Shown: positions 3,334-55,837 of the stretch, one piece after another
Numbering within the stretch: the first letter of the stretch is position 1
Layout of the letters: every line of letters begins with the position of its first letter
DNA from: Pseudomonadales bacterium
GTDB lineage: Bacteria; Patescibacteriota; Microgenomatia; UBA1400; PJMF01
Direction of reading: 5' to 3'
NCBI GenBank assembly: GCA_020632265.1
Contig: JACKFW010000001.1
Span: 663,272-727,271, forward strand
Length of the DNA: 64,000 nt
The notes under the pieces: model-generated
Told to the model about the DNA's origin: nothing
The model's database searches: none
The model's input: the letters and a program-made list of their open reading frames with translations, nothing else
Program-made: the position numbers and the translations under genes

Positions 3334-3485
3334 GGTTAATGATAGACTAAGTATTTTTGCAAATCATTGTCGTAATTAAGCTAAAGATTTATAGTTAAGA
3401 TTTAGATTTTATTTTTAACCTTATAAAAACAATTGAAAATACTTATAGTAACAATTTATTTAATTGCCACAAAAAAGCGCTTAAT

Positions 3486-3601
3486 TCTGGCCTCGACCTA
3501 TCTTCACACACAGTTGCCCGTGCACTATTGTCAGCGCTGAGGCGTTTCAAGACTCTGTTCGGGAAGGGAAGAGTTGGTTCCACCTCGCTCTAGAGACCAG
3601 A
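3486..3601 (-). rRNA. rrf: 5S ribosomal RNA
   Basis: The reverse complement reads TCTGGTCTCTAGAGCGAGGTGGAACCAACTCTTCCCTTCCCGAACAGAGTCTTGAAACGCCTCAGCGCTGACAATAGTGCACGGG...GTGTGAAGATAGGTCGAGGCCAGA. It carries the conserved CCGAAC, loop E and helix I (9-bp terminal pairing TCTGGTCTC/GAGGCCAGA). Confidence 0.85.
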
Positions 3602-4206
3602 ATTAAACGCTCTTAAACGCGCTTTAAGCTCCTCACACATTCATTAAGGTTTTATATTATGCCTCTCAAAATGCTTAATTAGTTTAAAGCAATTTTCATT
3701 TTTCATATTTTATAGAAGCTAATGCCCTATTTTACTATGAAAAATACTTATTAAATTGTTAATCGGACTCGCGCACAATAGTATTGTGCACATAAATCTA
3801 TTTTAGAGTTGTAGTTCGATTTAAATCGAACTACAAGTATCTTTGAAACTTGCCGGCCCAAAAGGCTGGAGCTTCATAATAGACTTGGACTCTAACAAGT
3901 GAAGAAAATCTGCCATGTGTCAAAACAATATAGTAAAATTCCAATAAATTAAAACCTTAGTTGATATAAACACAGCAACCATGCTTTTGAAGTTTGAAAA
4001 TTAGCTTATTAGGTCGTATAAATTTGTATTGGTAAACCAATGTAAATTTCACAACTTGTAAACATTTTATCAACCAACAAAATATGAAAATTATGTTCGA
4101 TCAACACTTAGTATAGTTAGGCTTAGCCTGTCACCAGGCTTACACCGACTACCTATCAACGTGGTGTTCTCCCACGGGTCTAATGGAGATAGTTAATCTT
4201 GAGATT

Positions 4207-4239
<33 letters not shown>

Positions 4240-4367
4240 ACAAGGAATGTAGCTACCCTGCAGTGCGCTTGACAGCGACAACAGGAACACTAGGGATTCC
4301 CTCACTCCGGTCCTCTCGTACTAGGAGCAAATTCTCTCAACTATCTAACGCTGACAGCGGATAGAGG

Positions 4368-4407
<40 letters not shown>

Positions 4408-4428
4408 GCTTTAATAGGCGAACAGACT

Positions 4429-4479
<51 letters not shown>

Positions 4480-5052
4480 AGCAAACCGCGCCGACGCTAG
4501 GGACGCTTAGGCGCGATGACTCTGTTATCCCCGAGGTAACTTTTATCCGATAAGCCCGGTGTCTTCCACAAAACACACGAGGATCACTATAACCTGCTTT
4601 CGCAACTGCTCGGCTTGTATGCCTCACAGTAAAGCATTCTTATGCTATTGCACGTCCAGCCTGATTTCTATCCAGGCTAAGAATACCATTGCGCGCTTGC
4701 GTTACTCTTTAGCAAGCAACCTCCCCAGTTAAACTACCCACCAGACAGTGTTCTTTCACACGTTTGCAGTGTGATTAAGTTAGATGATAAATACAAAACG
4801 GGCGGTATTTCACTGGTCGAAACCGTCATAAATGAAGGTTTCTCCCGCCTATTCTAAACAATTGCATATTCACCGTCAGTGCCAAGTTGTAGTAAAGCTC
4901 TACGGGGTCTTTTTGTCCTGCTGTCAGTAGGCCGCATCTTCACAGCCATTTCAATTTCGCCGAGTAATAGTTCAAGACAGTATGAGGCTTGTTAAACCTT
5001 TCGTGCGGGTCGCCAATTAAGCGACAAGGAACTTCGCTACCATAGAACAGTT

Positions 5053-5800
5053 CATTATTGTTACTCCATTAAGCTTAACGTTCAATTAAACTTAAATTAT
5101 GGGGGGGTGTGGTTATTTCTACCACACTCCTTATGTCTCCATAAGGATCGGACTATATCATCTCAAACCTAAGTTTGAGGTTAGCGTATAGTCTCTGAGG
5201 ATTCTGACAAAATGTCTTTTTTAGTGTACTTTCTGGTGCGACCAGCTCCTACATTGATTTTTTCTCTTAGATCCACCAATTCTTTTAAACCAGCTTCAGT
5301 TAAATGTTCTTTTGCAAACATTAAATTTACAGCTTTCTTAAAAATTGCGAAGTTTTTCTTTTTTATCTGAGATAAAAATTTGTATTTAGTGAAAAAGGGT
5401 AAAATAAACTCTTTTAGCACTTTTGGATTGGTCACATCATAAGAGTGTAAACCATCATTTCTTACTTTAATAATGCCACACTTAAAGTGTTGCTTCATTA
5501 AAGCCAAAATGGTTCTTTCTCTTTGAGAAACATTAAAACTTAGTACTGGCTGCCAGCCAGTTTTATAATCATCTTTCTTTCGAAAAGAAATATTAAAACT
5601 TCCTTCTCCATCTACAAAGCCTGATATATACCAAGCAATATTGGTGGGAATTTGATTATAATTTATCATTTTGTTAGTCTTTCCTGCTGATTGTCTCTAT
5701 TCAATCGATTGTTACTACTGATTCATATTTTATCAGCAGTACGATTGACCTGTCAAGATTTTCCAGCATATAGCTAACTTTTTTAACTACAATTGTACTC
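5053..5800 (-). mobile_element. Group I intron in 23S rRNA domain IV, inserted at the GTAACTAT^AACNG site (near E. coli position 1923-1931, the I-CeuI-type site). It carries a homing-endonuclease ORF.
   Basis: Exon continuity is broken. The upstream exon ends ...CCCCGGTGAACGGCAGCAGTAACTAT and the downstream exon resumes AACTGTTCTATGGTAGCGAAGTTCC. The intron shows S-element-like GATATAGTCCGATCC and R-like GAAAGACTAAC, and ends in G before the 3' exon. Confidence 0.75.
5181..5669 (-). CDS. LAGLIDADG homing endonuclease (single-motif, I-CreI-like size, 162 aa) encoded within the 23S group I intron
   Basis: The motif YISGFVDGEGSFNISF is a canonical LAGLIDADG/dodecapeptide. The ORF lies entirely inside the 23S interruption and is preceded by AAAATG. 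Confidence 0.85.
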   Translation of the reverse strand: MINYNQIPTNIAWYISGFVDGEGSFNISFRKKDDYKTGWQPVLSFNVSQRERTILALMKQHFKCGIIKVRNDGLHSYDVTNPKVLKEFILPFFTKYKFLSQIKKKNFAIFKKAVNLMFAKEHLTEAGLKELVDLREKINVGAGRTRKYTKKDILSESSETIR

Positions 5801-6552
5801 ATAGTTACTGCTGCCGTTCACCGGGGCTTCGATCAGAGGCCTTATCTAATAAATTAGATAAAACCCCCTCAATTAACCTTCCGGCACTGGGCAGGCTTCA
5901 GCCCGTATACTTCCTCTTACGAGTTTGCACAGACCTGTGTTTTTGGTAAACAGTCAACCTCATGACATTCACTGCGCCTCTTCAATCCGAAGATTAAAGA
6001 GGAGGGCATCTCTCGAAATTACGCCCAGCTGTTTTGCCGAGTTCCTTAAACTATTTTCTCTCGCTCTCCTTGGTCTACTCGACCTGACTACCTGTGTCGG
6101 TTATCGGTACGATTTGATTAGAATCTCCTTGCGAAGCTTTTCCAGGATAATGAAATCACACATAACTCTTCTTCCCGAAGGAATTGGAGCCCTATAACAC
6201 CTCAGATAAACGCCTGAACGGATTTGCCTATTCAGACTGCTTTAGTGCTTCGAAGCAACATTCACCGCTGCTCATATGATATCCATCACCGTCCCTCCCC
6301 AAGTCAAATGATCCTAACCAAGGACTGGAATATTAGCCAGTAATCCATCGGCTACCCCTCATTAACGAGGGCTCACCTTAGGGTCGCCTAACCCGCACAC
6401 GACGAACGTGGGTGCGGAAACCTTGGTCATTCGGAGTCGGGGATTCTCACCCCAATTTCGCTACTCATGCCGGCATTCTCACTTCTGATCGCTCCACCAA
6501 CTCCTCACGGGTTGGCTTCAAAGCACACAGAACGCTCCCTTACCGCTCCACT

Positions 6553-6760
6553 GCAGAACAAAATTAGCTATAATAATTAATTCGAATTTCTTAAATCCGA
6601 ACAATTAATTTAAGCTGAATTCTAAAAGAATTCAGACTAAATATTCTCGCGCTATATCGTGATTTGAAACTCTTCACGCTTCATCACAATTCTCGCGCTA
6701 TATCGTGATTTGCAAAAATCCCAATGTTGCGATTATTTAACTCTCTTTGTTCTGCAGCAG
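6553..6760 (-). repeat. AT-rich expansion insertion inside 23S rRNA (helix 45 region, domain II). It is closed by an inverted repeat and contains two copies of a 24-nt direct repeat.
   Basis: The flanks CTGCAGAACAAAG ... CTTTGTTCTGCAG form a long stem. ATTCTCGCGCTATATCGTGATTTG occurs at 6644-6667 and again at 6690-6713. The conserved 23S sequence GGAGCGTTCTGT resumes immediately outside. Confidence 0.6.
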
Positions 6761-8476
6761 AACCCTAAGCTTCGGTTACATATTTGAGCCTCGTTGGATT
6801 TTCAGCGCATTATTCCTCGGCTAGTGAGCTGTTACGCTTTCTTTAAAGGATGGCTGCTTCTGAGCCGACCTCCTAGGTGTGTTAGGAATAACACTTCTTT
6901 TGCCACTAAATATGTAATTTGAGACCTTAGCTGTAGGTCTGGTTTGTTTTCCTTTTGCTCCTGGAACTTAGCTCCCAGGTGCTGAGTGCTACGAAACATT
7001 ACGGGGTATTCGGAGTTTAACTAAGCGCTTAAGCTTTCGCTCAAGACACCAGATCAGTGCTCTACCCCCCCGCAACTTCACGTAACCCTATACCTAAATA
7101 TATTTCAGGGAGAACCAGCTATCTCCGGGTTCGATTGGCATATTACCTCTTACCACAACTCATCCGAGCATCTTGCAGCATACACCGGTGCGGACCTCCA
7201 CCTCGATATTATCAAGGCTTCATCCTGGTCATGGTAAGCTCACCCGGTTTCGGGTCATTCAACAACTACTAGTTCGCGCTATTCACGCTCGCTTTCACTA
7301 CGGCTTCGACACGGAATGTCTTAACCTAAACGCAATTGTCAAATACTCGCCGGCTCATTCTTCAATAGGCACGACATTACAGTATAAATACTGCTTTGTC
7401 TGATTATTAGCAGATGGTTTCAGGTTCTATTTCACGGGGTCTTCAACCCTTCTTTTCACCTTTCCCTCACGGTACTCGTTCACTATCGGTCTTATCTGGT
7501 ATTTAGTCTTGGAGTGTGGTCACCCCAGCTTCAGAAGGGAGTTTGCCGTCTCCCAACCTACTCAGGAACACTCTATCGCTTTATTAGATTTCGCTTACGG
7601 GATTATCACCCTCTTTGATCACCTATTCCAAAGTGTTCTTCTATCTTCTAAAGACGAATGTTGAGGTCCTACAACCCCAGAATAAATTCTGGTTTGGACT
7701 GATCCCTTTTCGCTCGTCGCTTACTCAGGGAATCTCTTACGATTTATTTTCCTCCGCCTACTTAGATATTTCAGTTCGGCGGGTTACCCACCTAAATATT
7801 AAATTTAGGGCCATCATGATCTCTCATGATGTGATTTCTCAATTCGGACACGGTCGGATCATAACTTTTTCCCAGTTACCCGACCACTTTCGCGGGGTTA
7901 GCGTCCTTCCTCGGCCAGATAAGCCTAGGCATCCACTATCTGCATTAATTCACATAAATTTCATTTATATTTGATAAGCTTGCTATAAACACGAGCTTGC
8001 GCTGTGTCATAGACTTTAGCATGTGAAACTATATTATATAGTTTCGATTTGTAGCATATATATTTTTTATTTTTTTTGTAATTTCAAGACGAAAAATTTG
8101 TACAAAGTACAAATTAAGTTGAAATTTTTAAAAAGATGCATGGCCACTGATGATTAAATCATCATTTTGACCTATACATGACAGTTTTCTTCACTTGTTA
8201 AAGATCAAATCTATTTTTGAAAACGAGTTTAAGTTACCTCAAACATTTATGCTTTCTAATTTGATTTCAAGGATTTAGGTTTATACAGCATTTTAACTTT
8301 GAGAGTCCAACTGTATCGTAACCACCTTATTTTTTAGCAATAATTAGTTGCTAAATGTTAGTTCTCAGTAAAACCTGGTGAGGTAAAACCAAAGAACTAA
8401 TATTTAATCACCAATCTTGCTTAAATCTGCCTAAAACTAATTAATCTTGCCAAACAGCAACCAAACCTTAAGAATG

Positions 8477-8550
8477 TGGACCCTAAGGGAGTCGAACCCT
8501 TTACCTCTTCATTGCAAATGAAGCGCTCTAGCCAGGTGAGCTAAGGGCCC
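8477..8550 (-). tRNA. tRNA-Ala (anticodon UGC), immediately upstream of the 23S gene
   Basis: The reverse complement GGGCCCTTAGCTCACCTGGCTAGAGCGCTTCATTTGCAATGAAGAGGTAAAGGGTTCGACTCCCTTAGGGTCCA folds as a cloverleaf with a G3:U70 pair, anticodon loop TTTGCAA and a TTCGACT T-loop. CCA is not encoded. Confidence 0.9.
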
Positions 8551-14736: not shown

Positions 14737-14876
14737 ATTTACTCAAATTCCGTATTGACTTGATATAAGAATTATCTGTATTCTGTTAGTAGCAAGAGTA
14801 TTTTTTTGTAGTACTTTTGTTAAGATTTCTTTTGTAACCTGCAGTCAAAATTATAGAAAAGATTTATAAAATAAAA

Positions 14877-16433
14877 ATGATCAACGCAACATTAAATAAT
14901 TCAAGCGATCAAAACTCAATCAATACTCTTTCTCAAAACAAGCTAAGTAACGAGGACGCTTCTAATAATAGTAATAATAGCTCTGCACCAATGACTCAGT
15001 CTAAAGTTGATAATTCTGGTTCGCCATTTCTTTCGAACAGTTCTAAAACAAGCTCAATAAATTCTAATCCAAATTCAAATACATATAAATCTGATTCTAA
15101 CAACTCTGGCACAAGTTCTGACAATTCTAATCCAAGTTCTAATGGCCATAAATCAAAGAAAAGATTTGATATTAAAATGATTGCGGCCGCATTTGTATTG
15201 TTACTAATAGTCATCGGGTCGGGAGCTGGCTATTATCTTTCACAGAAAACCCAAGATCTTAGACAACAAGCATATACGGGCCAAACATGTACTTCTTCAA
15301 CTCAGTGTACAGGCTACCCAAATGAAGCTTGCGTTAATAATGTTTGTGTACCTTCGGCACCACCGGCCGGTGGCACATGTCCAAACCCACCACACCTACC
15401 AGCAATTTGGTGTGCAACCTTCGATTGTCCATACGGTGATACTACTGGTGATGGACAATGTAATTACGACGATACTGGCTCAAGTCACACTTACGGCAAC
15501 GGAACAAATTGTCCAAACCCACCTTCTGGTTGTGGTCAAGTAGACATTTATTCAGCACCTCCGGTTGGAGCTAATTGGCAGTCATTTTGTGGAGTTACAT
15601 TTCTAAATTTCGATGATTGTGACCAGGTTCCAACACCTACACCTACACCAACGCCAACACCTACACCTACACCAACGCCAACACCTACGCCAACACCTAC
15701 ACCAACACCTACACCAACCCCAACACCAACACCTACACCAACACCTACGCCAACACCTACGCCAACCCCAAGCGTACTGGCATGTAATTCAATCTGCATT
15801 GTCTCCTCTGGAATTGATCCTTGCACTCGAGTAAATCCATCTTGGTATTGTAGTTTCATAGAAGGAACAACAGAACGAAGATGTAGACTTAGAACAAATC
15901 CAACTTCAATTAATTGCAGTCCAACTATCACGCCACCACCTACCACACCACCACCGGGAGTTTTATCCTGTAACTCACCATGTAATGAGCCGTCAGGATC
16001 AGACGAAGATCGATGTACCCTCGCAAATCCGGCATGGTTCTGCTTCTTGCCTGGAGATGGATCTCAAGGAAGATGTAGATTAAAAACAAATCCTGGCTCC
16101 ACAAAATGTGAGCCAGCAGCAGAGCCAATGTGCAAAGACTTAGCAATTCTTGATAAAGATGGCAATGTCTTAAATCCTAACAGCACTACATTTAAAATTG
16201 GCATGATTCTTAAATTCAGGTGTGCAGCAGACGATCCAGCTAATCAAATTACTCGTTATGAATTCAAACTAACAGAGCCAGACGGAACTATTATTGAAGG
16301 ATCTAAAATCAATCCTGCTGGTTCATCAACAATCTCATTAGAATATCAAATTGATCAATATCTCAATTACCAAGTTCAATGCAGAGCCTGTATTGGATCA
16401 ATATGTCAACCATATAAATCAATAGTTAATTAG
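14877..16433 (+). CDS. Type II membrane-anchored Cys-rich surface protein. N-terminal S/N-rich tail, one TM, a (PT)n linker, then 2 copies of a Cys-module of about 45 aa. No LPXTG.
   Basis: [23 protein letters not shown]. Juxtamembrane [33 protein letters not shown] is shared with the 18753 gene. A run of (PT)n follows. Modules are [47 protein letters not shown] and [49 protein letters not shown]. Confidence 0.6.
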
Positions 16434-16451
16434 AAAAATACAAAAATAACA

Positions 16452-18503
16452 ATGGAAAATACCAACTCACAACCACAAGCTTTCTACACGAAAATGCCTA
16501 ATGTTGTAAATTCTATGCAAGACAGTGTTTTGCCATCCAATAATAATTCATCAAAAAATCCACCAAAAAAGGGACTAAAAAATGTAATGGCGGTAATTGG
16601 GTTACTAGTATTTGTTGTCATTGCGCTCACTGGCGTGTTTATCGCACAAAAACAAGTTTCCAAAATTGGTGAAGACACAAAACCTGTGTCTCCTACTGCT
16701 CCTGAATCCAAACCTCAAGCAGCAATTGACACTAATAATTATTGCTCTACTCAATTTTTTGTACCAAAAGGAAGTGCTGCTTGTGACACAAAAATTGCAT
16801 TAACCGATTTTACAAAAAAATCCGGCAAAGTTATTCCTGAACAAACAATCTTCAATGTTGGAGACACCTTTGTTTTCAAAATTACTGCATCGGCAACAGA
16901 CGACACTATTGGTGGAGTTAAAATTACCGATACATTGCCAACTTCATTAGAGTTCATTAACGATCCAAACAATACAGCTGGAATTATCAATGAAGGACAA
17001 ACTATAATTGCCAATCTTGTGGACATGAAAAAAGGAGATAAAAAAGAAATTGAATTTAAAGTCAAAGTTGTATCTGGAGTCGGAATCTCTACAAGTGATG
17101 GAACTCAAGTAAACCTAGCCACGGTTATAACCAATGAAGACAATAAAACCAAATCATCTTGTTCATATAAATTTAAAACAATTGAAGGAACTGCCGAATG
17201 TATATCTAAAGAAATGTTTGACGGTGACCCTGCAAACCGAAACTCAAAAATTGTACCTGAAGGAAGTGCTCTCGTTAGAGGCGAAGAATATGTGTACTAC
17301 ATTACAATTAATGCAAAAAATAAAACAAATGGTGAAGTCAAACTGCATGATGTTCTACCTTCAAATCTTGAATTTGTAAGGCCTTTGCCTGCCAGTGCTA
17401 AATTCATCTCAAATAAAGCTGGTGAAAATACAATATTCGTAAATTTTGGAACTCTGGAAAATGAAAAAGTAACTTTAGGATTTGTTGTTAAAGTTGTAGA
17501 CAATCCTACAATTGGTAAATTCAACAATTCAGCGCTAGTTTATATTTTCCCACCATTCTCAAGACAACCAGAACCACCTAAAGACGGTAGTTTCTGCAGT
17601 GTCTCGCACTCTATTATTCCAGTGGGCACAGCACAGTGTTTGGAAAAAGAAGCCTTCACAGATTTTTCCGGAAGTGAAATATTGGCAAATGATACCATCA
17701 AAGCTGGCCAAGAATTTGTCTATAAGGTTTCTATACAAGCAGAAAACGTCACTGATGGAGACGTTGTTATAGTAGACCAGTTATCTTCGAACCTAATATT
17801 CGTTGATGATCCAAAAAACACCGCAGGCATTAAATACGATTCAAATACTCGAAAAGTATCAATCAACTTCGGACCAATAGTCAATGATGAGGTTAGAACC
17901 ATTCAATTCAAAGTCCAAGTAATTGCCAATCCTTCAGGTGACATGATTACAAATATTGCAACTGTTACAACAAATAATCAATCGTCTCATACTTGTGAAT
18001 TGCCATTAAAACTATACGTTGATCAAACTTATGCTTGCAACGAAGAATGTCAAACCAATGAAAACTGCCAAACAGCTAACGATGATTATATTTGTTACAG
18101 TTCTTCAAACGGCAAAGTATGTAGATTGGATAGCAATCCTCTTGACACCGGCTGCAATCCTACCAACACACCTACACCAACACCTACACCAACACCTACA
18201 CCAACACCAACCACTTCTTCTGCACCTGAACCTGGATGTAATGATCTTTGCACCAGTAATGCAAGTTGTATTAATTCAAATCACGTTTGTCTCACTACTG
18301 CTGATGGATCAAATAGATGCAGATTGGAATCGAATCCTGATTCTATAACCTGTTCTAATCCTGTAGAATATGTTGCAAACGCACCAACTCAACCACAGCT
18401 ACCTACTGAATTACCACAAACTGGACCTGAAGATTGGCTAAATTGGTTCAAAGCTGGGTTAGTTACCTTAGGAGTCGCAACCGCCCTCTTCTTACTGCTC
18501 TAA
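16452..18503 (+). CDS. LPXTG-anchored surface protein with three DUF11 (conserved repeat domain) repeats, two Cys-modules and a (PT)n linker
   Basis: N-terminal TM/signal MAVIGLLVFVVIALTGVFIA. DUF11-like blocks ITDTLPTSLEFINDP, LHDVLPSNLEFVRP and IVDQLSSNLIFVDDP. Linker [18 protein letters not shown]-terminal LPQTGPEDWLNWFKAGLVTLGVATALFLLL. Confidence 0.65.
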   Translation: MENTNSQPQAFYTKMPNVVNSMQDSVLPSNNNSSKNPPKKGLKNVMAVIGLLVFVVIALTGVFIAQKQVSKIGEDTKPVSPTAPESKPQAAIDTNNYCSTQFFVPKGSAACDTKIALTDFTKKSGKVIPEQTIFNVGDTFVFKITASATDDTIGGVKITDTLPTSLEFINDPNNTAGIINEGQTIIANLVDMKKGDKKEIEFKVKVVSGVGISTSDGTQVNLATVITNEDNKTKSSCSYKFKTIEGTAECISKEMFDGDPANRNSKIVPEGSALVRGEEYVYYITINAKNKTNGEVKLHDVLPSNLEFVRPLPASAKFISNKAGENTIFVNFGTLENEKVTLGFVVKVVDNPTIGKFNNSALVYIFPPFSRQPEPPKDGSFCSVSHSIIPVGTAQCLEKEAFTDFSGSEILANDTIKAGQEFVYKVSIQAENVTDGDVVIVDQLSSNLIFVDDPKNTAGIKYDSNTRKVSINFGPIVNDEVRTIQFKVQVIANPSGDMITNIATVTTNNQSSHTCELPLKLYVDQTYACNEECQTNENCQTANDDYICYSSSNGKVCRLDSNPLDTGCNPTNTPTPTPTPTPTPTPTTSSAPEPGCNDLCTSNASCINSNHVCLTTADGSNRCRLESNPDSITCSNPVEYVANAPTQPQLPTELPQTGPEDWLNWFKAGLVTLGVATALFLLL

Positions 18504-18752
18504 TAATTTTCTAACAACTCTAATATCTGGCTTACTGGCTTACTGTTTTGCTATCTTATTCTATTAGTATTCTTACTACCTTGGTATTTTTAATTACTCT
18601 AATTAGCTTAAACGCGATTCCAGTATCATTAACTGACAAAATTCATTCGTTAAAAATTTTTAGAGTATTTTCTTATTGACTAAGGGGGTCAAATATATGT
18701 ATTCTATTAGTGAGCATATTTTTATGTTCCAATTATTCTCAATAAAAATTAT

Positions 18753-20483
18753 TTGAATGTTGAGAATATGGGTTTGTCATTCAAGGAAAATATTATGATT
18801 AATGTATCGATGGGAAATCCCTCACAAACTGTTTCTACCGGAACAAATCCATCTTTTCCTACCCATAATCCAGCATCTCAAAATTTATCACTAATGAATA
18901 ATGTTGTTGCTCAAGGAAATGTTAGTACTTCTCCAGCATCTACTAGTTTTCCAAATCAGAATACTAGTGCTCCAAGATCTACTCTTGATTCAGTTTCACC
19001 AAAATTTCCCGATCCAACTAACCCTCAAAATAAAAACAGTGGTTCTGCTCCAATTTCTGACAATTTTAAACCAAAAAATAAACTAAACCTCAAGATGGTT
19101 CTTGGAATAGTCGTATTATTATTAATTGTTTTAGGATCTGGATCTGGATTCTATCTGTCACAAAAAACTCAAGACCTTAGACAACAGGCATACAATGGAC
19201 AATCTTGTAGTACCTCAACTCAGTGTTCTGGATACCCAAACGAAACCTGTTTTGGCGGTGTGTGCGTGCCTTCGGCACCACCACCAGCTACGACACCACC
19301 ACCTCCAGCCACACCTCCTGGAAGCACACCACCACCAGCTACAACGCCACCTCCAACCATACCTCCTGGGGGCACACCACCACCTGCTACGACACCACCA
19401 CCTGCTACGACACCACCACCTGCTACGACACCACCACCCGCAATTTCGCCATCACCTCCAGTAATTACACCTCCTCCAACTACGCTTTCATGTAATTCAA
19501 TCTGTGTTGTTACATCTGGCGTTGATCCTTGCTATCAAGTTGATCCAAAACTATACTGTAGTTTTATTGAAGGTTCCACTGAGCGCAGATGTAGATTAAA
19601 AACAAATCCTACTTCAGTAACTTGTAGTCCTGCAACACCACCGCCAGCTACAACGCCACCTCCAACAACGCTTTCATGCAACTCAATTTGCACTCCATCA
19701 ACTGGTTCTGGAGAAGATCCTTGTACCCTAGTTAATAGAGCTTGGTCTTGTTACACACTCGTTGACCAAGATCAAAGTAGATGCAGATTAACAAGCAATC
19801 CAACTTCTATTTCCTGTAGTCCTTCAGTCACACCAACACCAACGCCATCATTTTCGCCTACACCAACCCCCACATCTAAAACTTCACCTACGCCAACACC
19901 AATTCCTCTAACTTGTAATGCAAGTTGTACGCCAGGATTAGGAAAAAGTGACCTTTGTACTGCAGCTAATAGTAATTGGTTCTGTGATCCGGCTACCAAC
20001 AAATGTAGATACGAAACAAATCCGTCTTCAACCACATGTGAAGCTCCAGTTGGATCAGTGGCATGCAATCAAACTTGCACTTCAGATCAACAGTGCTACA
20101 ACACTAATAAAAACTGGCTTTGTGACTCTTCAAGCAAAACTTGTAGGTTATCATCCAATATAAGCTCTATCACATGCCAACCGTTGCCTACGGCAACTCC
20201 TACTCCAACACCATACTCAGAAGTAGGATGTAATGACTCATGTTATACAAACTCAGATTGTTCAAATAGCAGTCACATCTGTGTTACAACCTCTGATGGA
20301 TCGAATCGATGTCGATTAGAATCATATACAGACTCAGTAACTTGTACTATTCCTGGAAGTTCAACCTCACAACCAACTCTCCCAACTTCCTTACCAGAAA
20401 CTGGACCTGAAGATTGGCTAAATTGGTTGAAAGCTGGATTAATAACGCTTGGAATTGGCACAGCTCTTTTCCTACTTCTTTAA
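18753..20483 (+). CDS. LPXTG-anchored Cys-rich surface protein. N-terminal low-complexity tail, one TM, PPATTPPP repeats, then 5 to 6 Cys-modules.
   Basis: [35 protein letters not shown]. Five to six modules ending ...RCRL(K/T)(T/S)NP(T/S)S(V/I)(T/S)C. C-terminal LPETGPEDWLNWLKAGLITLGIGTALFLLL. Confidence 0.6.
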   Translation: MNVENMGLSFKENIMINVSMGNPSQTVSTGTNPSFPTHNPASQNLSLMNNVVAQGNVSTSPASTSFPNQNTSAPRSTLDSVSPKFPDPTNPQNKNSGSAPISDNFKPKNKLNLKMVLGIVVLLLIVLGSGSGFYLSQKTQDLRQQAYNGQSCSTSTQCSGYPNETCFGGVCVPSAPPPATTPPPPATPPGSTPPPATTPPPTIPPGGTPPPATTPPPATTPPPATTPPPAISPSPPVITPPPTTLSCNSICVVTSGVDPCYQVDPKLYCSFIEGSTERRCRLKTNPTSVTCSPATPPPATTPPPTTLSCNSICTPSTGSGEDPCTLVNRAWSCYTLVDQDQSRCRLTSNPTSISCSPSVTPTPTPSFSPTPTPTSKTSPTPTPIPLTCNASCTPGLGKSDLCTAANSNWFCDPATNKCRYETNPSSTTCEAPVGSVACNQTCTSDQQCYNTNKNWLCDSSSKTCRLSSNISSITCQPLPTATPTPTPYSEVGCNDSCYTNSDCSNSSHICVTTSDGSNRCRLESYTDSVTCTIPGSSTSQPTLPTSLPETGPEDWLNWLKAGLITLGIGTALFLLL

Positions 20484-20518
20484 ATGATCGGTAAAATAAA
20501 TTTAGAAATATAAAATTA

Positions 20519-20546
20519 AAAAAACGCCACAAAAGGCGTTTTTTTA
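20519..20546. terminator. Bidirectional rho-independent terminator
   Basis: AACGCC-ACAAAA-GGCGTT hairpin flanked by A-run and T-run (aaaaacgccacaaaaggcgttttttt), lying between the convergent surface-protein gene and the tRNA. Confidence 0.7.
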
Positions 20547-20550
20547 AAAA

Positions 20551-20626
20551 TGGTGAGTCGAGAGGGACTCGAACCCCCGACCAGTAAGGTATAAGCTTAC
20601 CGCTCTACCAGCTGAGCTATCGACTC
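20551..20626 (-). tRNA. tRNA with anticodon UAU (tRNA-Ile reading AUA), CCA encoded
   Basis: The reverse complement GAGTCGATAGCTCAGCTGGTAGAGCGGTAAGCTTATACCTTACTGGTCGGGGGTTCGAGTCCCTCTCGACTCACCA folds as a cloverleaf with a 7-bp acceptor stem, anticodon stem GTAAG/CTTAC and loop CTTATAC. Confidence 0.8.
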
Positions 20627-20832
20627 ATTTTTCTGATTTTGAATCAAGTTCATTATATAACACAACTAGCCAACTTCAATCTCAAGGTGACAAGAATGTG
20701 TCTCAATTATACTATAAAAGATTCGACTCTTAATTATTTAAAAAAAGAATTATATAATTACCACTCAAATATCTATTACCATACATATATTTATTAAAAA
20801 TTAAGATGATACAATATATTCAAGAGGAAAAT

Positions 20833-21870
20833 ATGAAATACCCATCAAAAATACTAGATTTATTAAAACAAAAATGGAAGCTATTACTCGGTTTTTTAAT
20901 TTTAATTGGAATAGTATTCTTTTTTTTAATTAGATCAAAAGCTAGCAACCAAGAAATTTTAACATTTTCTAATCCAGTCATTAAATCAATTACAAAAACC
21001 TTAGAAATTTCTGGACACGTAGATGCAAAAGAAAAAGCTAGGCTAAGATTCATTGCTGGTGGAAAACTGGTTTATTTGGGCGCTAAAGAGGGTGATGTCG
21101 TCAAAAAATGGCAAACAATTGCGTCAATAGACCAAGCTACTTTAAATAAAGTGCTCCAAAAAGACTTAAATTTATACATGAAGGAAAGATGGGACTGGGA
21201 ACAAGGAATAGACGATAATAAAGATACATATATTGATCCTACTGAACAAAGAGTTATTGATAAAAATCAATGGGATCTTGATAATACTGTGATAGATGTT
21301 GAAATTCAAGATATCTCTATTAAAAATGCAAGTATTTACGCGCCATTTGCAGGCATATTAACCGTGGCTCCAACTGCTGTTACAGGTGTTCAACTTACTG
21401 GTTCAGATTATTTTGAAATTATTAATCCCGATTCATTAATTTTTAGAGCCGCAATTGATGAATCTGACATTAGTTTTATCAAATTAGCTCAAAATGCCGA
21501 ACTTACCCTAGACTCATTTCCAGACGAAATAATTAATACTCAAGTAACCTACATTTCATTTGTAAGTACTGAAACTAGTGGAGGAACTGCTTTTATTGTT
21601 GAATTTCCTTTAGCTAATGCCTCTAATTCAAATAATCTAAGAATCGGAATGAATGGTGATATTAAGATTCTGTTAGAAACAAAAGATGATGTATTAACAA
21701 TTCCCACAATTGCTCTAACTCAAAGAGATGATAAAGCTTATGTCAATGTCAAAATTGGAGAAAACAGTTCTGAAGAAAGAGAAGTTACTACAGGACTTGA
21801 AACTGATGAAGAAATTGAAATTATTGATGGGTTATCACAATCCGATCAAATTGTAATTCCAAAACAATAA
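20833..21870 (+). CDS. Efflux-pump periplasmic adaptor / HlyD-family membrane fusion protein (MacA-like)
   Basis: N-terminal TM, a coiled-coil middle and a C-terminal beta-barrel-like region. It precedes MacB-type ATPase and FtsX-permease genes. Start moved to MKYPSK. Confidence 0.65.
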   Translation: MKYPSKILDLLKQKWKLLLGFLILIGIVFFFLIRSKASNQEILTFSNPVIKSITKTLEISGHVDAKEKARLRFIAGGKLVYLGAKEGDVVKKWQTIASIDQATLNKVLQKDLNLYMKERWDWEQGIDDNKDTYIDPTEQRVIDKNQWDLDNTVIDVEIQDISIKNASIYAPFAGILTVAPTAVTGVQLTGSDYFEIINPDSLIFRAAIDESDISFIKLAQNAELTLDSFPDEIINTQVTYISFVSTETSGGTAFIVEFPLANASNSNNLRIGMNGDIKILLETKDDVLTIPTIALTQRDDKAYVNVKIGENSSEEREVTTGLETDEEIEIIDGLSQSDQIVIPKQ

Positions 21871-21871
21871 A

Positions 21872-22672
21872 ATGATTTTAAAATTAATAAATGTTTCCAA
21901 GCATTATCAGCTAGGAAATAACCTAATCAAAGCACTAAATAATACAAGCGTCGAAGTAAATGAGGGCGATTTTATTTCGATTATGGGTCCTTCAGGATCT
22001 GGAAAATCAACATTTTTACAGATTGCAAGTATTTTAGCCGAGCCTACTAGTGGTCAAATTTTTCTAAAAGATAAAGATGTAACCTCATATAATGAGGTTG
22101 AAAGAGCTAAAATCAGAAATCAAGAAATTGGTTTTATATTTCAACAATTTAATTTATTGGCAAGAACCTCTGCCATCGATAATGTTGCACTTCCCTTGGT
22201 ATACGCAGGAGTTAAAAATTCGCAACAAATTAAACGCGCCACTGAAATATTAACAAAAGTGGGTCTTGCTGAAAGATTATATAACACTCCAGCCCAACTC
22301 TCTGGTGGTCAGCAACAAAGAGTAGCAATCGCAAGAGCACTCATCAACAATCCTTCAATTATTTTTGCAGACGAACCAACTGGTAATTTAGATTCTAAAT
22401 CCGGCGATGAAATCATGAAAATTTTGCAAAATCTACACAAAGAAGGTAAAACAATAGTGATGGTAACTCATGAAGAAGACATTGCTCAATTGGCTGAAAG
22501 ACAAATTGTTTTTAAAGATGGTGAGATCGTATTCGATTCGGGATCAAAAAAGAGCCAAACTAAAAAAATCATCAAAACAAAAAATACAAAAATAATAAAT
22601 AAAAATACAAAAATAATAAATAAAAATACAAAAATAATAAATAAAAATACAAAAATAATAAAGAAAAAATAA
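21872..22672 (+). CDS. ABC transporter ATP-binding protein (MacB/LolD/FtsE-like) with a C-terminal (KNTKIIN)n tandem-repeat tail
   Basis: Walker A GPSGSGKSTFLQI, Q-loop, signature LSGGQQQRVAIARAL, Walker B IIFADEPTGNLD and H-loop VMVTHE. A 24-nt DNA repeat of 4 copies lies at 22575-22668. Confidence 0.85.
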   Translation: MILKLINVSKHYQLGNNLIKALNNTSVEVNEGDFISIMGPSGSGKSTFLQIASILAEPTSGQIFLKDKDVTSYNEVERAKIRNQEIGFIFQQFNLLARTSAIDNVALPLVYAGVKNSQQIKRATEILTKVGLAERLYNTPAQLSGGQQQRVAIARALINNPSIIFADEPTGNLDSKSGDEIMKILQNLHKEGKTIVMVTHEEDIAQLAERQIVFKDGEIVFDSGSKKSQTKKIIKTKNTKIINKNTKIINKNTKIINKNTKIIKKK

Positions 22673-23880
22673 TGTTCAACACATTTAAAATTGCTATAAA
22701 GGCAATACTGGTAAACAAATCAAGATCATTTTTAACAATGCTCGGGGTTATCATTGGTGTTGGATCGGTTGTCTTATTAACCGCAATTGGGACAGGACTG
22801 CAATCATACGTATCAGAACAATTTGATGAACTTGGAGCAAACACAGTGCTAGTATATCCAGGTGATCCATTCGGAGAAGGTGGTGGCTTTAGTCGTGAAA
22901 ATCAACTAAATGCACTTTCCAATAGCAAACTTGAAATGAAAGATGTCCAGGATATTTTAAAGATCAGAGAATTTGTAAGTGTCGCAGTCCCTTTTACAAC
23001 GCAAACTGACAACATTTCATATAGAGGCAATGATAAAGCTATAACGGTTATTGGTTCTACTGAAGATTATCAGATTGCTCAATCTACAACTAAGGTAGAA
23101 AAAGGCAGATTTTTCAATAAAACTGAGAACGATGCAAAAAAGAAAGTCGTCGTTATCGGATTTAAAGTTGCGGAAGAATTATTCGGTGAAATCGATCCAA
23201 TTGGCAAAAAAGTAAAGATTGGCAATCAAACATTCACTGTAATTGGAGTCCAAGAAGAAGCCGGTGGTTCTTTCGGAGGGCCGAGCTTTGATACTTACAT
23301 ATTTATTCCAATAGAAACCATGTTTAAACAATATGATTCAAAAAAGATTGTTGAAATTATTGTCAAAACAAAAAGCACTGATAATATACCTGAATCAATT
23401 GCAGCAATTGAAAAGCAATTACAAAAAAAATATGATGATGATGAATTTTCAGTCTTTGATCAGTCAGAAATTCTGAAAACTATCAATCAAATTCTAGGAG
23501 TTTTAACTATTGGCCTAGGAGGAATATCAAGCATTTCGTTGCTAGTAGGAGGAATTGGCATAATGAATATCATGTTGGTATCTGTAACAGAAAGAACACG
23601 AGAAATCGGACTTAGAAAAGCTCTGGGGGCAACTCCAAACACCATCCTGACTCAATTTTTAATAGAAGCAGCGGTATTATCAATATTAGGTGGGATAATT
23701 GGCTTATTAGTTGCCTATTTAGGTACTCTTGTAATTCAAATTTATTTTCCTGCAAAAATTACTATGCAAGCTGTCTTACTCGCATTTGGAGTATCTACAG
23801 CAGTAGGTTTAATATTTGGCGCTGCTCCAGCAAGAAGAGCATCTTTACTCTCTCCTATTGAAGCTCTTAGATACGAATAA
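22672..23880 (+). CDS. ABC transporter permease, FtsX/MacB family
   Basis: MacB_PCD-like periplasmic domain between TM1 and a C-terminal three-TM FtsX bundle (GGIGIMNIMLVSVTERTREIGLRKALGA). ATGA overlap with the upstream ATPase. Confidence 0.8.
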   Translation: MFNTFKIAIKAILVNKSRSFLTMLGVIIGVGSVVLLTAIGTGLQSYVSEQFDELGANTVLVYPGDPFGEGGGFSRENQLNALSNSKLEMKDVQDILKIREFVSVAVPFTTQTDNISYRGNDKAITVIGSTEDYQIAQSTTKVEKGRFFNKTENDAKKKVVVIGFKVAEELFGEIDPIGKKVKIGNQTFTVIGVQEEAGGSFGGPSFDTYIFIPIETMFKQYDSKKIVEIIVKTKSTDNIPESIAAIEKQLQKKYDDDEFSVFDQSEILKTINQILGVLTIGLGGISSISLLVGGIGIMNIMLVSVTERTREIGLRKALGATPNTILTQFLIEAAVLSILGGIIGLLVAYLGTLVIQIYFPAKITMQAVLLAFGVSTAVGLIFGAAPARRASLLSPIEALRYE

Positions 23881-24374: not shown

Positions 24375-26702
24375 TTAAAGATTACTTCTGCTTTGAATTT
24401 CAGACTCAACGATCTCAACTTCTTTACCATATTTCAATCTAGATAGCTCCTTGATCATCTCTGCCTGTTTAGGATTCATCCTAGCTTTAATATCATCCAT
24501 GTCTTTCTCTAAAGACATACTAAATGCAGGAACAGGTTCATTTTTTACAATCGTTTTGATATATACATGATACTTTTCTATATTTGTCAAATCACCTTCG
24601 TTAAAAGTTGGTGCAAACTCATGTTGCAAAAAGTTTGCATCTGGAACACCAACTCTAAATGAAACCATAGTACCAACGTTTCCAAAAACAGCATTCTTCA
24701 CATCCTCATCAATTTGACTAACAAACTGATTGGCAACAATTAAATTTAAGCGATACTTTCTAGCTTCTGAAAGAATAACTGCAAAATCTTCAGTTGCGTA
24801 ATTCTGAAACTCATCAACATATAAGAAAAAATCTTTTCTTTGATCCATTGCAACATCCTGACGACTCATCGCGGCAGTTAAAACTTTTGGTACAAGAATT
24901 AAACCTAAGAATTTTGCATCTTCTTCACCCAGAACTCCTTTTGAAAGATTGCATAGTATTACTTTCTGATCATCCATAGCCTGTCTAAAATTAAACGAAC
25001 TTTCAGGCTGACCGATAATATTACGCATTGTTTTGTTGGTCACAAACCTACCAAATTTAGAAACAATATAATCTAAAACCTCAGATTTGTGAAAATCCGA
25101 GGTTTGTGCAATTTGATCAGTCCAATATCGCCTTACCACTGGATCTTTAATTAATGGCATCATTTCATCAACATACTTACTGTCAGTTAAAATACGAACG
25201 AGTTCAATAAATGTACTACCTTTTTTATACATGATACTCAACATCGCATTTCTAATTGCATGTTCAAATCTTGGTCCAATAATTCCTGTTCGATGCGGAT
25301 CGTATAGTTTGTACATCAAACCAATGATTGAACCGACCACAAAATGTCTTTGTTCCTCTGAATCAGCTTCCATCATGTTTAAACCCATTGGTCTTGATAA
25401 ATCGGATGGGTTGAAATAAATAACATCATCTGCTCGTTCTGGAGGCATTAATTCTAAAATATCTTCAATGAATTCTCCATGAGGATCAATGGCACAAACT
25501 CCCTTACCTGCCTCAATATCTTGCAAAATCATTTCCTTAAGAAACTCAGATTTACCTGTACCAGTTTTTCCAATAATATACATATGTCTTCTTCTGTCAT
25601 CATCGCCAATAAAAACTTCTCTATCTTCACCTCTATAATTTGATTTACCCAAGCGCAAACCTGTTTTGGGAATATTATGTGGTGCCGGAGCATTTTTTGC
25701 ATTTAAATATCGAATATGATGAGTTTCAACTGTTTTATTTGGTAAATGAAAAATTGTTGCTAATTCTTCAGAATTTAAAATAAAGGTTCCTATGTTAAAA
25801 ATTGGCATATATCTATATATAAAATCAATCATAAATAGATGCTTTAGCCATATTCTAGCCTTCTTAAATGAGTTATATGCGGATGAATACTGAGCAAATG
25901 TACCAACTATGTTATTTAGATGAGATTCGGCCATATACTCATTTTGTGCAGAAACAACAATTCTAATAGAAACTTTAAATCCGGGCTTTTCTACCTTTTG
26001 ATTAATTAATTCCATTTCCTTAGGATCATTTGCATATGAAGCATTTTTTGGATCAGCCTCACGCTTTTTCTGGGCTGCAACGAAAGATCTTCCCTGTTTT
26101 TGCCATTTTCTGGATTCTGGTTGAAGGAGAATTTGAATAATCGCACCTTCGCCAGCACCCATCTTAGAAAGTGCCGAAGTTAATAAAGATAAACCATCAG
26201 TTGGTAAATCCTTAAACATTTTGAGTGGAATATATGTAGCTTTTTCTAATTTAAGAGAAGCAAAAGCAACTTTGCCCTTCTTGCTAAAGATATTCACTTC
26301 GTCAACTTCCTTGATATCAGCATTTGGATATGCTCCATGGATTTGCTTTTCCACCAAATCTCTAATCTTGCGAGGACAATTCATATAAAATGATATCTCT
26401 TCTTGAAGAGCCACTATCTCAAAAGAGAACAAGTTTTCAGCTTTTGCCCAAGCAAAAATACCAGATTTTTTAAGCGAGTAAAGAGATGCAAAAAGTTGCT
26501 CTGCGGCATCAATTTTAGTTTCATTATCTTTAGGAACTCTTATTAACAAAGAAACAAATTCAAGTGCAACTTTTTCCCTATTACGATGTTTAAACCACTG
26601 AAAAACCATGTAAATGAATACGATAAATATCGCCAAAAAAAGAATTGCAAAAATCAATAGCATTAAAAAAGATGCAATTCTGGCTGTAAAATCACCTTCC
26701 AT
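24375..26702 (-). CDS. Membrane-anchored FtsK/HerA-superfamily P-loop ATPase, type IV secretion VirB4/TraC-like. A VirD4/TraD-type coupling protein is not excluded.
   Basis: Two N-terminal TM helices. Walker A YIIGKTGTGKSEF is followed by GVCAIDPHGEF (DUF87/T4SS-DNA_transf pattern). Walker B/arginine region LYVDEFQNYATEDFAVILSEARKYRLNLIVANQ. An N-domain of about 380 aa precedes the ATPase. Confidence 0.6.
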   Translation of the reverse strand: MEGDFTARIASFLMLLIFAILFLAIFIVFIYMVFQWFKHRNREKVALEFVSLLIRVPKDNETKIDAAEQLFASLYSLKKSGIFAWAKAENLFSFEIVALQEEISFYMNCPRKIRDLVEKQIHGAYPNADIKEVDEVNIFSKKGKVAFASLKLEKATYIPLKMFKDLPTDGLSLLTSALSKMGAGEGAIIQILLQPESRKWQKQGRSFVAAQKKREADPKNASYANDPKEMELINQKVEKPGFKVSIRIVVSAQNEYMAESHLNNIVGTFAQYSSAYNSFKKARIWLKHLFMIDFIYRYMPIFNIGTFILNSEELATIFHLPNKTVETHHIRYLNAKNAPAPHNIPKTGLRLGKSNYRGEDREVFIGDDDRRRHMYIIGKTGTGKSEFLKEMILQDIEAGKGVCAIDPHGEFIEDILELMPPERADDVIYFNPSDLSRPMGLNMMEADSEEQRHFVVGSIIGLMYKLYDPHRTGIIGPRFEHAIRNAMLSIMYKKGSTFIELVRILTDSKYVDEMMPLIKDPVVRRYWTDQIAQTSDFHKSEVLDYIVSKFGRFVTNKTMRNIIGQPESSFNFRQAMDDQKVILCNLSKGVLGEEDAKFLGLILVPKVLTAAMSRQDVAMDQRKDFFLYVDEFQNYATEDFAVILSEARKYRLNLIVANQFVSQIDEDVKNAVFGNVGTMVSFRVGVPDANFLQHEFAPTFNEGDLTNIEKYHVYIKTIVKNEPVPAFSMSLEKDMDDIKARMNPKQAEMIKELSRLKYGKEVEIVESEIQSRSNL

Positions 26703-37249: not shown

Positions 37250-37266
37250 AATAAATAGTTTAACAC

Positions 37267-47638: not shown

Positions 47639-47643
47639 ATCTG

Positions 47644-50835: not shown

Positions 50836-50931
50836 ATTATTCCGTTCTTATTTATAACTTTTAGAATTTGTTTTAATAATCAATTAATACTATTTTTGTC
50901 AATTTTAATTGGAGAGTTTTCAAATTTAAAA

Positions 50932-51921: not shown

Positions 51922-51941
51922 ACCAAAAGAGCTATTTTACC

Positions 51942-52856: not shown

Positions 52857-52953
52857 AACACTTATTTGATTTGATTTAAAATCATTTATTTGTCTTGATA
52901 GCAAACTATCAGACATATTGTTAGTCGGAAGAATCACCAAAAACCACGCAAAT

Positions 52954-53250: not shown

Positions 53251-53261
53251 ATTACTTCTCC

Positions 53262-55798: not shown

Positions 55799-55837
55799 AT
55801 TTGTTATCAACTAACTCTTATTTATCAAACAATAAGT

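Follow-up and report, generated by a model that had tools for sequence, protein, structure and literature searches.

What do three adjacent genes for cysteine-rich proteins encode, and how are their products held at the cell surface? The question is raised by positions 14877-20483 of a 64-kb stretch of contig JACKFW010000001.1, a low-GC (~32%) genome fragment; this whole stretch is called the window, and all coordinates below are window positions. The initial annotation had described three paralogous surface-protein open reading frames (ORFs) on one strand, and all three, here named g1, g2 and g3, are present as claimed. With moderate confidence, we read them as a lineage-specific, syntenic envelope locus of Microgenomates-type Patescibacteria (Pacebacteria and Woesebacteria) encoding three mosaic, paralogous cell-surface fibre proteins of the sortase type.

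14877..16433, + strand: g1, 518 aa; MINA start, S/N-rich cytoplasmic tail, signal-anchor, Cys-rich domains, (PT)24 linker, two modules and an Ig/FN3-like tip; without a C-terminal anchor
16452..18503, + strand: g2, 683 aa; short N-terminal tail, transmembrane segment, PTAPESKPQAA motif, three DUF11/CLIPPER domains with C-x12/13-C segments between them, then two modules and an LPQTG cassette
18795..20483, + strand: g3, 562 aa from the revised start; MINV start, cytoplasmic tail (FPTHNPA, PKFPDPT), signal-anchor with QDLRQQA, 4-Cys motif, PPATTPPP linker, five modules and an LPETG cassette

The third gene was first listed from TTG 18753, as 576 aa. Its start is most likely ATG 18795 instead (MINV..., MINVS...), because all g3 orthologues begin with MINA and because AAGGAAA lies 8 nt upstream of this ATG.

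The six-cysteine module

The three products have in common a module of six cysteines. A regular expression and alignment together find nine copies, across which the six Cys, one Asn and one Arg are invariant.

15783-15917 and 15969-16109, + strand: g1 modules 1 and 2 (residues 303-347 and 365-411)
18036-18155 and 18237-18353, + strand: g2 modules 1 and 2 (residues 529-568 and 596-634), with a (PT)n linker at 18156-18236 between them
19491-19625, 19677-19817 and 19914-20039, + strand: g3 modules 1-3 (residues 247-291, 309-355 and 388-429; all g3 module residues are counted from nt 18753)
20064-20177 and 20229-20345, + strand: g3 modules 4 and 5 (residues 438-475 and 493-531)

Copy number per protein ranges from two, in g1 and g2, to five, in g3, and not up to the six first counted. 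A profile search with the module copies, as the initial annotation had suggested, was run exhaustively against 1.84 billion cluster representatives (50%-identity clusters), using 56 sequences taken from the nine window copies and from orthologues found with g3. It matched 444 proteins at E <= 1e-3, 141 at E <= 1e-10 and 33 at E <= 1e-30. In the 155 proteins examined, 468 full-length copies show 100% conservation of all six cysteines, and 99% have the Arg after C5. The consensus reads CNxxCxTNxxC...NxxYxC...CRLxxNPxSxxC, with a spacing of C-x3-C-x5-C-x(5-9)-C-x(4-10)-C-x10-C in which C1-x3-C2 and C5-x10-C6 are fixed. Cysteines and spacing that hold over so many copies mark the module as real, well beyond chance. 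A word-index homology search with the nine-module alignment returned no matches, sequences as short as these having no words in common. In g1-g3 the module has no match among Pfam-A and NCBIfam models, even at E <= 1, and no paper on the family was found in the literature on sortase, LPXTG or Cys-rich proteins in the Candidate Phyla Radiation (CPR), Pacebacteria or Woesebacteria. By sequence comparison, the module is an uncatalogued family, absent from both Pfam and NCBIfam.

AlphaFold2, run on g3 residues 436-477 (module 4) with the family alignment, returned a confident mini-fold (mean pLDDT 93.8), predicted as a short helix (residues 10-16) and a beta-hairpin (20-22, 28-31). The top matches of this model in a Foldseek search of the PDB were all cystine-knot mini-proteins, including CKP peptides derived from the potato metallocarboxypeptidase inhibitor (PCI), with TM-scores of 0.49-0.54. 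The same inhibitor came first when the module profile was compared with PDB sequences (E 0.38; aligned string CNKPCKTHDDCS---GAWFC). In profile-profile comparison by hhalign, the PCI knottin (PF02977) reached 76% probability over C1-C4, while the controls EETI-II, EGF and LDLa reached 0.9%, 0.2% and 3.4%. One g2 orthologue, P0033, passes the PF02977 gathering score of 25 with 34.7, a total over four partial matches that each fall within profile positions 2-24; g1, g2 and g3 have no PF02977 match even at E <= 1. An EGF, LDLa or squash-type knottin identity was ruled out (hhalign 0.2-3.4%, no Pfam matches), which answers the objection, foreseen by the initial annotation, that the module might prove EGF-like. 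Its statement that the module matches no family stands for Pfam-A and NCBIfam models and needs amending for the first four cysteines, which resemble the PCI knottin.

PCI (PDB 4CPA chain I, 1H20) has, like the module, about 40 aa and six Cys, and the N-terminal half P-x-C-N-x-P-C-x-T-x-D-D-C-x(3-8)-W-x-C is common to the two. Its spacing, C-x3-C-x5-C-x5-C-x2-C-x6-C, is compatible with the first three gaps of the module (x3, x5, x5-9) but departs from it afterwards, with x2 between C4 and C5 and x6 between C5 and C6 where the module has x(4-10) and x10. The CRLxxNPxSxxC signature is module-specific, the free inhibitory C-terminal tail of PCI is absent from the module, and the module, unlike PCI, is tandemly repeated within large bacterial surface proteins. 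Judging from the model and the alignments, the module probably has a knottin-like fold, and its N-terminal half is probably distantly related to, or convergent with, the PCI knottin. Disulfide pairing of C1-C4, C2-C5 and C3-C6 is assumed by analogy with that knottin.

The hairpin loop between C4 and C5 usually has 4-10 residues, but in P0002 and P0003 a repeat-rich insert of ~190 residues splits one module, which points to the loop as an insertion-tolerant display site. In these two g3 orthologues (split module at residues 322-567 and 230-476, respectively) the insert is made of 4-5 repeats of the form W..W.D.TG....G.G.I..F....N......QY.VRGG.LW.R and has a beta-propeller-like look.

A second architecture was seen in P0120, P0130 and ~20 further representatives (P0110, P0121, P0127, P0128 and others). 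An N-terminal transmembrane segment, at times with QQDIRQQA, is followed by an LRR or other domain, 3-4 shorter modules, a classical transmembrane segment, a KRKK stop-transfer sequence and a cytoplasmic tail that ends in a conserved SSMxDRLKxKGIxPP motif. The module lies just upstream of the C-terminal anchor both where this is the LPxTG cassette and where it is a classical transmembrane segment with KRKK (P0120, P0130). Such placement in both architectures supports a membrane- or wall-proximal stalk role.

The modules are combined with further domains and with linkers.

15288-15347, + strand: 4-Cys juxtamembrane mini-motif of g1, C-x5-C-x7-C-x4-C
15354-15626, + strand: 8-Cys domain of g1, CATFDC...CGQVDIY, of no known family
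15627..15776, + strand: (PT)24 linker of g1, an imperfect 6/12/48-bp DNA repeat
16131..16430, + strand: C-terminal 5-Cys beta-sandwich (Ig/FN3-like) tip of g1, from an AlphaFold2 model and Foldseek
16785-17159, 17202-17594 and 17640-17993 (together 16785..17993), + strand: DUF11/CLIPPER CnaA-like domains of g2 (PF01345, TIGR04226)
19266..19484, + strand: Pro-rich PPATTPPP linker of g3, holding a perfect 18-bp x 3.6 repeat at 19374-19438

The three DUF11 repeats ascribed to g2 are confirmed by PF01345 (73.2 bits against a gathering score of 24.6, in three stretches, E 2.7e-20), and the protein also passes TIGR04226, for an isopeptide-forming fimbrial domain (38.6 against a cut-off of 30). A recent study renamed DUF11 as CLIPPER and showed it to be CnaA-like, to carry a Lys-Asn isopeptide bond and to build the stalks of fibrillar adhesins (bioRxiv 10.1101/2025.04.25.650565). 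Inspection of the three g2 repeats finds in each a K (DTK/ISK/LEK), a D (ITDTLP/LHDVLP/IVDQLS) and an N (VNLATV/NNSALV/TNIATV), at the expected places of the pattern K...D(T/V/Q)L(P/S)...N-x-A-x-V. Against PDB sequences, g2 gave nothing at E <= 0.01. The 4-Cys mini-motif occurs once each in g1 and g3. The 8-Cys domain of g1 is conserved in P0001, P0003, L009 and L012 (E 1e-35 to 1e-40), and its sole Pfam signal is a weak EB-module match (E 0.0098). The g1 tip, modelled with 17 homologues aligned, has a pLDDT of 81.7 and generic FN3/Ig domains as its best Foldseek matches (E 0.03, TM-score 0.54).

At the protein level the linkers are (PT)n or PPATTPPP, as first reported. The accompanying claim that perfect DNA tandem repeats encode them is true only at 18168-18208 (12 bp x 3.4) and 19374-19438 (18 bp x 3.6); the rest are imperfect, and the g1 (PT)24 tract mixes synonymous codons, with 79-89% matches. 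Slippage-driven variation of linker length, as first put forward, is conjectural. Between species the length does vary, from 17 to 44 aa in g2-like proteins, and the g1 (PT)24 tract is unique to the window genome among the orthologues compared. The sole other sample of the population, Logan contig L001, has an identical copy of g2 and is 100% identical to the window.

Probable anchoring elements at the two ends

Export and attachment of the three proteins would depend on elements at their termini.

15174..15275, + strand: basic cluster, transmembrane helix and conserved juxtamembrane motif of g1
18390..18503, + strand: C-terminal sorting cassette of g2, QPQLPTELPQTGPEDWLNWFKAGLVTLGVATALFLLL, and stop codon
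20370..20483, + strand: C-terminal sorting cassette of g3, QPTLPTSLPETGPEDWLNWLKAGLITLGIGTALFLLL, and stop codon

At the N-terminus, g1 and g3 follow the same order: MIN(A/V), a low-complexity tail of ~100 aa, a Lys cluster, a transmembrane helix with GSGxG, and a juxtamembrane motif of the form YLSQxxQDLRQQA. An anchor and juxtamembrane segment common to the two genes had been described before, and 47 of its 66 residues prove identical. The motif QD[LIV]RQQA recurs in 54 ORFs in 38 related loci, roughly half of the proteins examined start with MINA, MINV, MVNA or MIKA, and FPTHNPA and PKFPDPT are conserved in the cytoplasmic tail of g3 orthologues. The positive-inside rule predicts that the g1/g3 element is a signal-anchor with its N-terminus inside the cell, and this signal-anchor, 'MINA...TM...QDLRQQA' (TM, transmembrane helix), is lineage-specific.

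The N-terminus of g2 (16452-16750) contains a second conserved motif, PTAP(E/V)S(E/K)P(Q/K/R)A(A/V), found also in P0011, P0016 and P0029 and situated between the transmembrane segment and the first Cys. This motif may mark a site of processing different from QDLRQQA.

At the C-terminus, g2 and g3 end in QPxLPxxLPxTG-PEDWLNW(F/L)K-AGLxTLGxxTALFLLL, and most family members keep the cassette, with the consensus QPxLPxxLPxTGPxDWxNWLKAGLxTLGxGAxLLLLL. LPQTG in g2 and LPETG in g3 stand 30 residues from the C-terminus, and hydrophobic segments of 16 residues each, AGLVTLGVATALFLLL (g2) and AGLITLGIGTALFLLL (g3), follow PEDWLNW(F/L)K. The two cassettes are 77% identical at the DNA level over 114 nt. 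Throughout the cassette family LPx[TSA]G is near-invariant. The initial annotation had remarked on LPQTG and LPETG tails that lack an Arg/Lys cluster, and both tails do end in ...ALFLLL; a basic tail is likewise absent from ~110 cassette proteins, with three exceptions (P0029, P0046, P0147). Proteins without modules carry the cassette too, and it therefore behaves as an independent sorting tag. Passenger domains in 82 cassette-bearing relatives include DUF11 (26), bMG10 (14) and DUF7927 (8), all Ig-like stalk types.

A sortase was sought in the 64-kb window, as had been proposed, and none was found by a TLxTC-type regular expression, by phmmer with S. aureus SrtA, by phmmer and tblastn with the sortase of locus L032, or in Pfam scans of ~45 ORFs. 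A genuine one does adjoin a g3-like gene in the related genome L032, 1 kb downstream (PF04203, E 2e-19), and reaches no class-specific NCBIfam cut-off. In the window and in 49 of the 50 related loci no sortase, pilus-specific (class C) or other, was found. In Microgenomates, sortase is near-ubiquitous; an MdbA-like thiol-disulfide oxidoreductase is enriched in CPR, and VKOR is the third most frequent neighbour of its gene (Méheust et al. 2019, PMC6744442). The near-ubiquity of sortase and the enrichment of the MdbA-like oxidoreductase with its neighbour VKOR lend plausibility, for this lineage, both to anchoring by a sortase and to oxidative folding of exported Cys-rich proteins; the L032 sortase likewise makes wall anchoring of g2 and g3 plausible. 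A CxxC regular expression for a thioredoxin-like oxidoreductase found nothing convincing in the window. The S-layer-like character once suggested for these proteins was rejected as unsupported, since no SLH or other S-layer family in Pfam or NCBIfam matches at E <= 1.

A conserved locus and its surroundings

Related loci were collected by scanning GTDB species representatives with cassette patterns, which yielded 50. Where the titles are informative, they name Patescibacteria (Pacebacteria, Woesebacteria or 'Patescibacteria group'). About 30 loci have one gene order, in which rpsA (on the opposite strand), pgk, a g1-like gene, a gene for DUF11, modules and cassette, and an optional g3-like gene are followed by a HlyD-like adaptor, a MacB ATPase and a MacB permease, then by a VirD4-like ATPase (opposite strand) and lgt. 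Orthologues of g1 hold the equivalent position in loci L002-L035. Near the surface genes the window contains the following.

14755..14784, + strand: promoter-like element before g1, TTGACT-N18-TATTCT, a consensus match only
18676..18705, + strand: promoter-like element before g3, TTGACT-N18-TATTCT, a consensus match only
20516-20547: strong terminator-like hairpin between g3 and the HlyD-like gene
20551-20626, - strand: tRNA-Ile (anticodon TAT, AUA decoder) between g3 and the HlyD-like gene
20806-21870, + strand: HlyD/MacA-like adaptor, a conserved neighbour
21872-22672, + strand: MacB-type ATPase, a conserved neighbour
22672-23880, + strand: MacB/FtsX permease, a conserved neighbour
24375-26702, - strand: VirD4/TraD-like coupling ATPase

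The second gene starts 18 nt past g1, and the transcription units are likely g1-g2 and g3. Upstream of g1 (14737-14890) and g3 (18640-18808) lies a common block, TATTGACT-N18-TGTATTCT-rTTAGT (...TGTATTCTrTTAGT); the duplication that made the paralogues therefore took in promoter and leader. Recent gene conversion between the paralogues was ruled out, their DNA identity being only 70-78%. A single operon running from g1 through g3 to MacB was ruled out by the intervening minus-strand tRNA and the separate promoter-like elements.

Many metagenome-assembled genome records (L006-L027 and others, L023, L024, L032) are titled Pseudomonadales, Limisphaerales or Methylococcaceae, yet have the Patescibacteria-type locus; one is named HK-STAS-PATE-16. 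Because these loci share Patescibacteria-type synteny, titles of the 'uncultured Pseudomonadales' kind are evidently wrong, and the three titles were ruled out as true hosts.

Elsewhere in the window, 46406-47638 (14 Cys) and 47644-48381, both on the + strand, encode adjacent proteins with T4SS-pilin-like C-termini (PF18895; the second scores 29.5 bits against a cut-off of 26.6). With the VirD4/TraD-like ATPase they may be parts of a patescibacterial, monoderm-type type IV secretion system (T4SS). The 23S rRNA gene (4087-7959, - strand) measures 3873 nt against a 2925-nt model, with an insertion of ~950 nt in which an ORF at 5181-5669 (- strand) encodes a LAGLIDADG homing endonuclease (PF00961, E 8.5e-19). 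A 23S rRNA interrupted with a LAGLIDADG endonuclease is a hallmark of the Candidate Phyla Radiation/Patescibacteria. A 5S rRNA gene lies at 3485-3601 and tRNA-Ala(TGC) at 8476-8550, and no 16S rRNA gene adjoins the 23S gene in the window. A mevalonate-pathway cluster occupies 49819-57100 (- strand; diphosphomevalonate decarboxylase, thiolase, HMG-CoA reductase), undecaprenyl-diphosphate synthase is found at 48434-49144, and on the - strand (35384-38358) a three-domain ATP-dependent DNA ligase (35384-37249) adjoins a Fic/DOC-family protein (37267-38358).

Proposed function of the proteins and comparison with known systems

On the fibre reading, each protein would be inserted through its N-terminal signal-anchor, with the N-terminus inside the cell. 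A string of disulfide-locked six-Cys beads, probably cystine-knot-like and spaced by Pro/Thr-rich linkers, would make a protease-resistant, semi-rigid stalk that always adjoins the C-terminal anchor. To this g2 contributes three CLIPPER/DUF11 CnaA-like domains of the isopeptide type; these and the Ig-like domains would add length and possibly binding. The Ig/FN3-like tip is that of g1, which would be held solely by its N-terminal anchor. For g2 and g3, a housekeeping sortase would most likely cleave the cassette after Thr and join the protein to peptidoglycan. Exposure at the surface as fibrils is expected from this arrangement, and adhesion to a host cell or surface is suggested by analogy and by the lifestyle of the group. 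Since the signals that would anchor them to membrane and cell wall are lineage-specific, the proteins are candidates for attachment or envelope fibres, not a new kind of system.

Several observations weigh against this interpretation. The N-terminal element departs from the canonical cleavable signal peptide; left uncleaved, it would keep g2 and g3 tethered at either end, an unusual state for adhesins. No K or R occurs in the last 6 residues of g2 and g3; g2 scores 12.0 bits against the TIGR01167 cut-off of 15.9 (E 0.27), and g3 is not reported by that model at all. A sortase gene is lacking from the 64-kb window and lies near only one of the 50 related loci (L032). No binding domain of known specificity was found in g1-g3. 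Taken singly, no knottin comparison reaches significance for the window proteins: Foldseek of the module against the PDB gave nothing below E 1.9, the PDB profile match has E 0.38, and Pfam gives no match.

It is possible, if on the whole unlikely, that the cassette is no sortase substrate and serves instead as a permanent C-terminal membrane anchor or as a tag for another lineage-specific sorting route. In the latter case the neighbouring MacB-type ABC transporter and HlyD-like adaptor might extract the tail or hand it over, in a LolCDE-like manner. Conservation of the cassette far beyond LPxTG fits this proposal, as do the lack of a basic tail in all but three of ~110 proteins, the sub-threshold TIGR01167 score and the want of a sortase in the window. 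So does the HlyD/MacB trio, which lies downstream of the surface genes in 34 of the 50 loci, including distant ones (L037-L051) without pgk/rpsA linkage and without modules. Yet LPx[TS]G is almost invariant, P0029, P0046 and P0147 carry canonical tails with a basic end, and in L032 a sortase adjoins the g3-like gene. In the window the minus-strand tRNA-Ile and the hairpin part g3 from the HlyD-like gene, and elsewhere the gaps before that gene reach 3-8 kb and hold unrelated genes, so surface genes and HlyD/MacB do not form one operon. The whole neighbourhood, unrelated rpsA and pgk included, is syntenic, so that adjacency may be inherited gene order, and other cassette genes of the same genomes are not beside MacB (L041, L043, L047, L052). 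Because of the tRNA and hairpin, the unrelated genes in the gaps and the cassette genes away from MacB, we treat HlyD/MacB as conserved context and not as a demonstrated component.

We hold it rather improbable that the proteins are structural membrane-to-wall tethers or spacers and not adhesins. On that account g3 would be fixed by its N-terminus in the membrane and by its C-terminus to the wall, with the cytoplasmic tail coupling the envelope to a cytoplasmic partner. Indeed g3 has no head domain, only anchors, linkers and beads; the Lys cluster before its transmembrane helix predicts an inside N-terminus, with a near-invariant QDLRQQA after the helix; orthologues keep the cytoplasmic motifs MINA, FPTHNPA and PKFPDPT; and the chromosomal position among housekeeping genes is fixed in ~30 genomes. 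However, g3 orthologues carry extra domains, among them the propeller-like insert and other Cys-rich domains, and domain content and linker length turn over rapidly between species, as is more typical of interaction proteins than of core structural components.

A role as adhesins of a patescibacterial monoderm-type T4SS or conjugation-like apparatus, analogous to the LPXTG proteins PrgB/PrgC or TraO, seems very improbable. A VirD4/TraD-like ATPase does occur downstream, both in the window and at over 20 related loci, the T4SS-pilin-like proteins are encoded at 46406-48381, and a survey of CPR T4SS, which found no PrgB-type adhesins, can be counted in its favour (bioRxiv 10.1101/2025.01.22.634366). 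The same survey found most CPR VirD4-like genes not to be near virB4. Genes for VirB4, VirB6 and VirB1 were not seen in the vicinity of the locus, the ATPase gene lies past the MacB operon and is read from the other strand, and Pfam/NCBIfam scans of g1-g3 showed no PrgB/PrgC similarity. It is scarcely credible that the modules, exposed at the surface, work as metallocarboxypeptidase inhibitors in the manner of PCI: the likeness to PF02977 and PCI, faint but specific, is confined to C1-C4, PCI inhibits by way of a free C-terminal tail that CRLxxNPxSxxC and a linker replace in the module, the C4-C5 and C5-C6 spacings differ, and the window proteins have no PF02977 match.

Patescibacteria/CPR form a large, mostly uncultured share of bacterial diversity and are thought to live attached to other cells; to our knowledge, type IV pili aside, almost nothing has been described of their attachment and envelope proteins. 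For Pacebacteria and Woesebacteria the locus provides candidate genes for surface fibres, conserved and at a fixed place in the chromosome. Its compact six-Cys domain, modelled with confidence and present in at least 444 50%-identity clusters, could be added to domain databases, and its two lineage-specific anchoring signals would sharpen surface-proteome prediction in Patescibacteria genomes. Heavy reliance on disulfide beads fits the enrichment of MdbA-like oxidoreductase and VKOR in CPR and suggests that oxidative folding matters at the CPR surface. The faint link to a plant knottin is relevant to cystine-knot mini-protein evolution, and a C4-C5 loop that takes inserts of up to ~190 residues makes the module a possible engineering scaffold. 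For CPR cell biology and domain cataloguing the finding is useful and moderately surprising; on present evidence it establishes no new principle. It is doubtful that signal-anchor, basic-tail-less cassette and knottin-like beads together constitute a previously unrecognised sorting and envelope architecture in Microgenomates. Were this so, a dedicated sortase clade or the neighbouring MacB/HlyD machine would handle fibres fixed at both ends or passed from membrane to wall, the proteins would be the long-sought attachment fibres of episymbiotic ultra-small bacteria, and the module would be the first tandem-repeated bacterial cystine-knot stalk domain, sharing its ancestry with, or convergent on, the plant carboxypeptidase-inhibitor knottin.

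Among known systems, the specialised signal peptides (YSIRK-G/S, KxYKxGKxW and the ESPR of autotransporters) resemble the MINA element as a conserved extreme N-terminal feature of many surface proteins in one lineage. The resemblance is one of analogy only; the sequences are unrelated, and the MINA element is far longer, with ~100-130 aa of low complexity before the transmembrane helix. TraA-type receptors of Myxococcus (PMC3325183) likewise combine a lineage-specific C-terminal tag (MYXO-CTERM) with a tandem Cys-rich stalk and variable distal domains, but their repeat family is unrelated (TIGR02232-type), their sorting tag is different and their host is diderm; this comparison is drawn from the paper and general knowledge, with no sequence similarity detected.

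The sortase-anchored fibrillar adhesins and pilins of Gram-positive bacteria, with CnaA, CnaB or CLIPPER stalks (RrgB-type, for example), share with the present proteins an N-terminal export signal, a repeat stalk with covalent cross-links (predicted ones in the present proteins), Pro/Thr-rich wall-spanning segments and an LPxTG with a hydrophobic C-terminus, and g2 passes PF01345 and TIGR04226. In contrast to them, the stalk here consists mainly of ~40-aa six-Cys disulfide beads instead of Ig-like domains. The tail has no basic cluster, carries an additional conserved GPEDWxNWLKAGL and falls below TIGR01167, and a long conserved signal-anchor places up to ~130 aa before the transmembrane helix. 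No sortase gene is adjacent, and the proteins come from a CPR bacterium. Fibres at the cell surface that combine covalently stabilised repeats with a C-terminal sorting tag are known already; what is new is the six-Cys module family, probably of knottin type and used in tandem in bacteria, together with the conserved locus and the two lineage-specific anchor elements.

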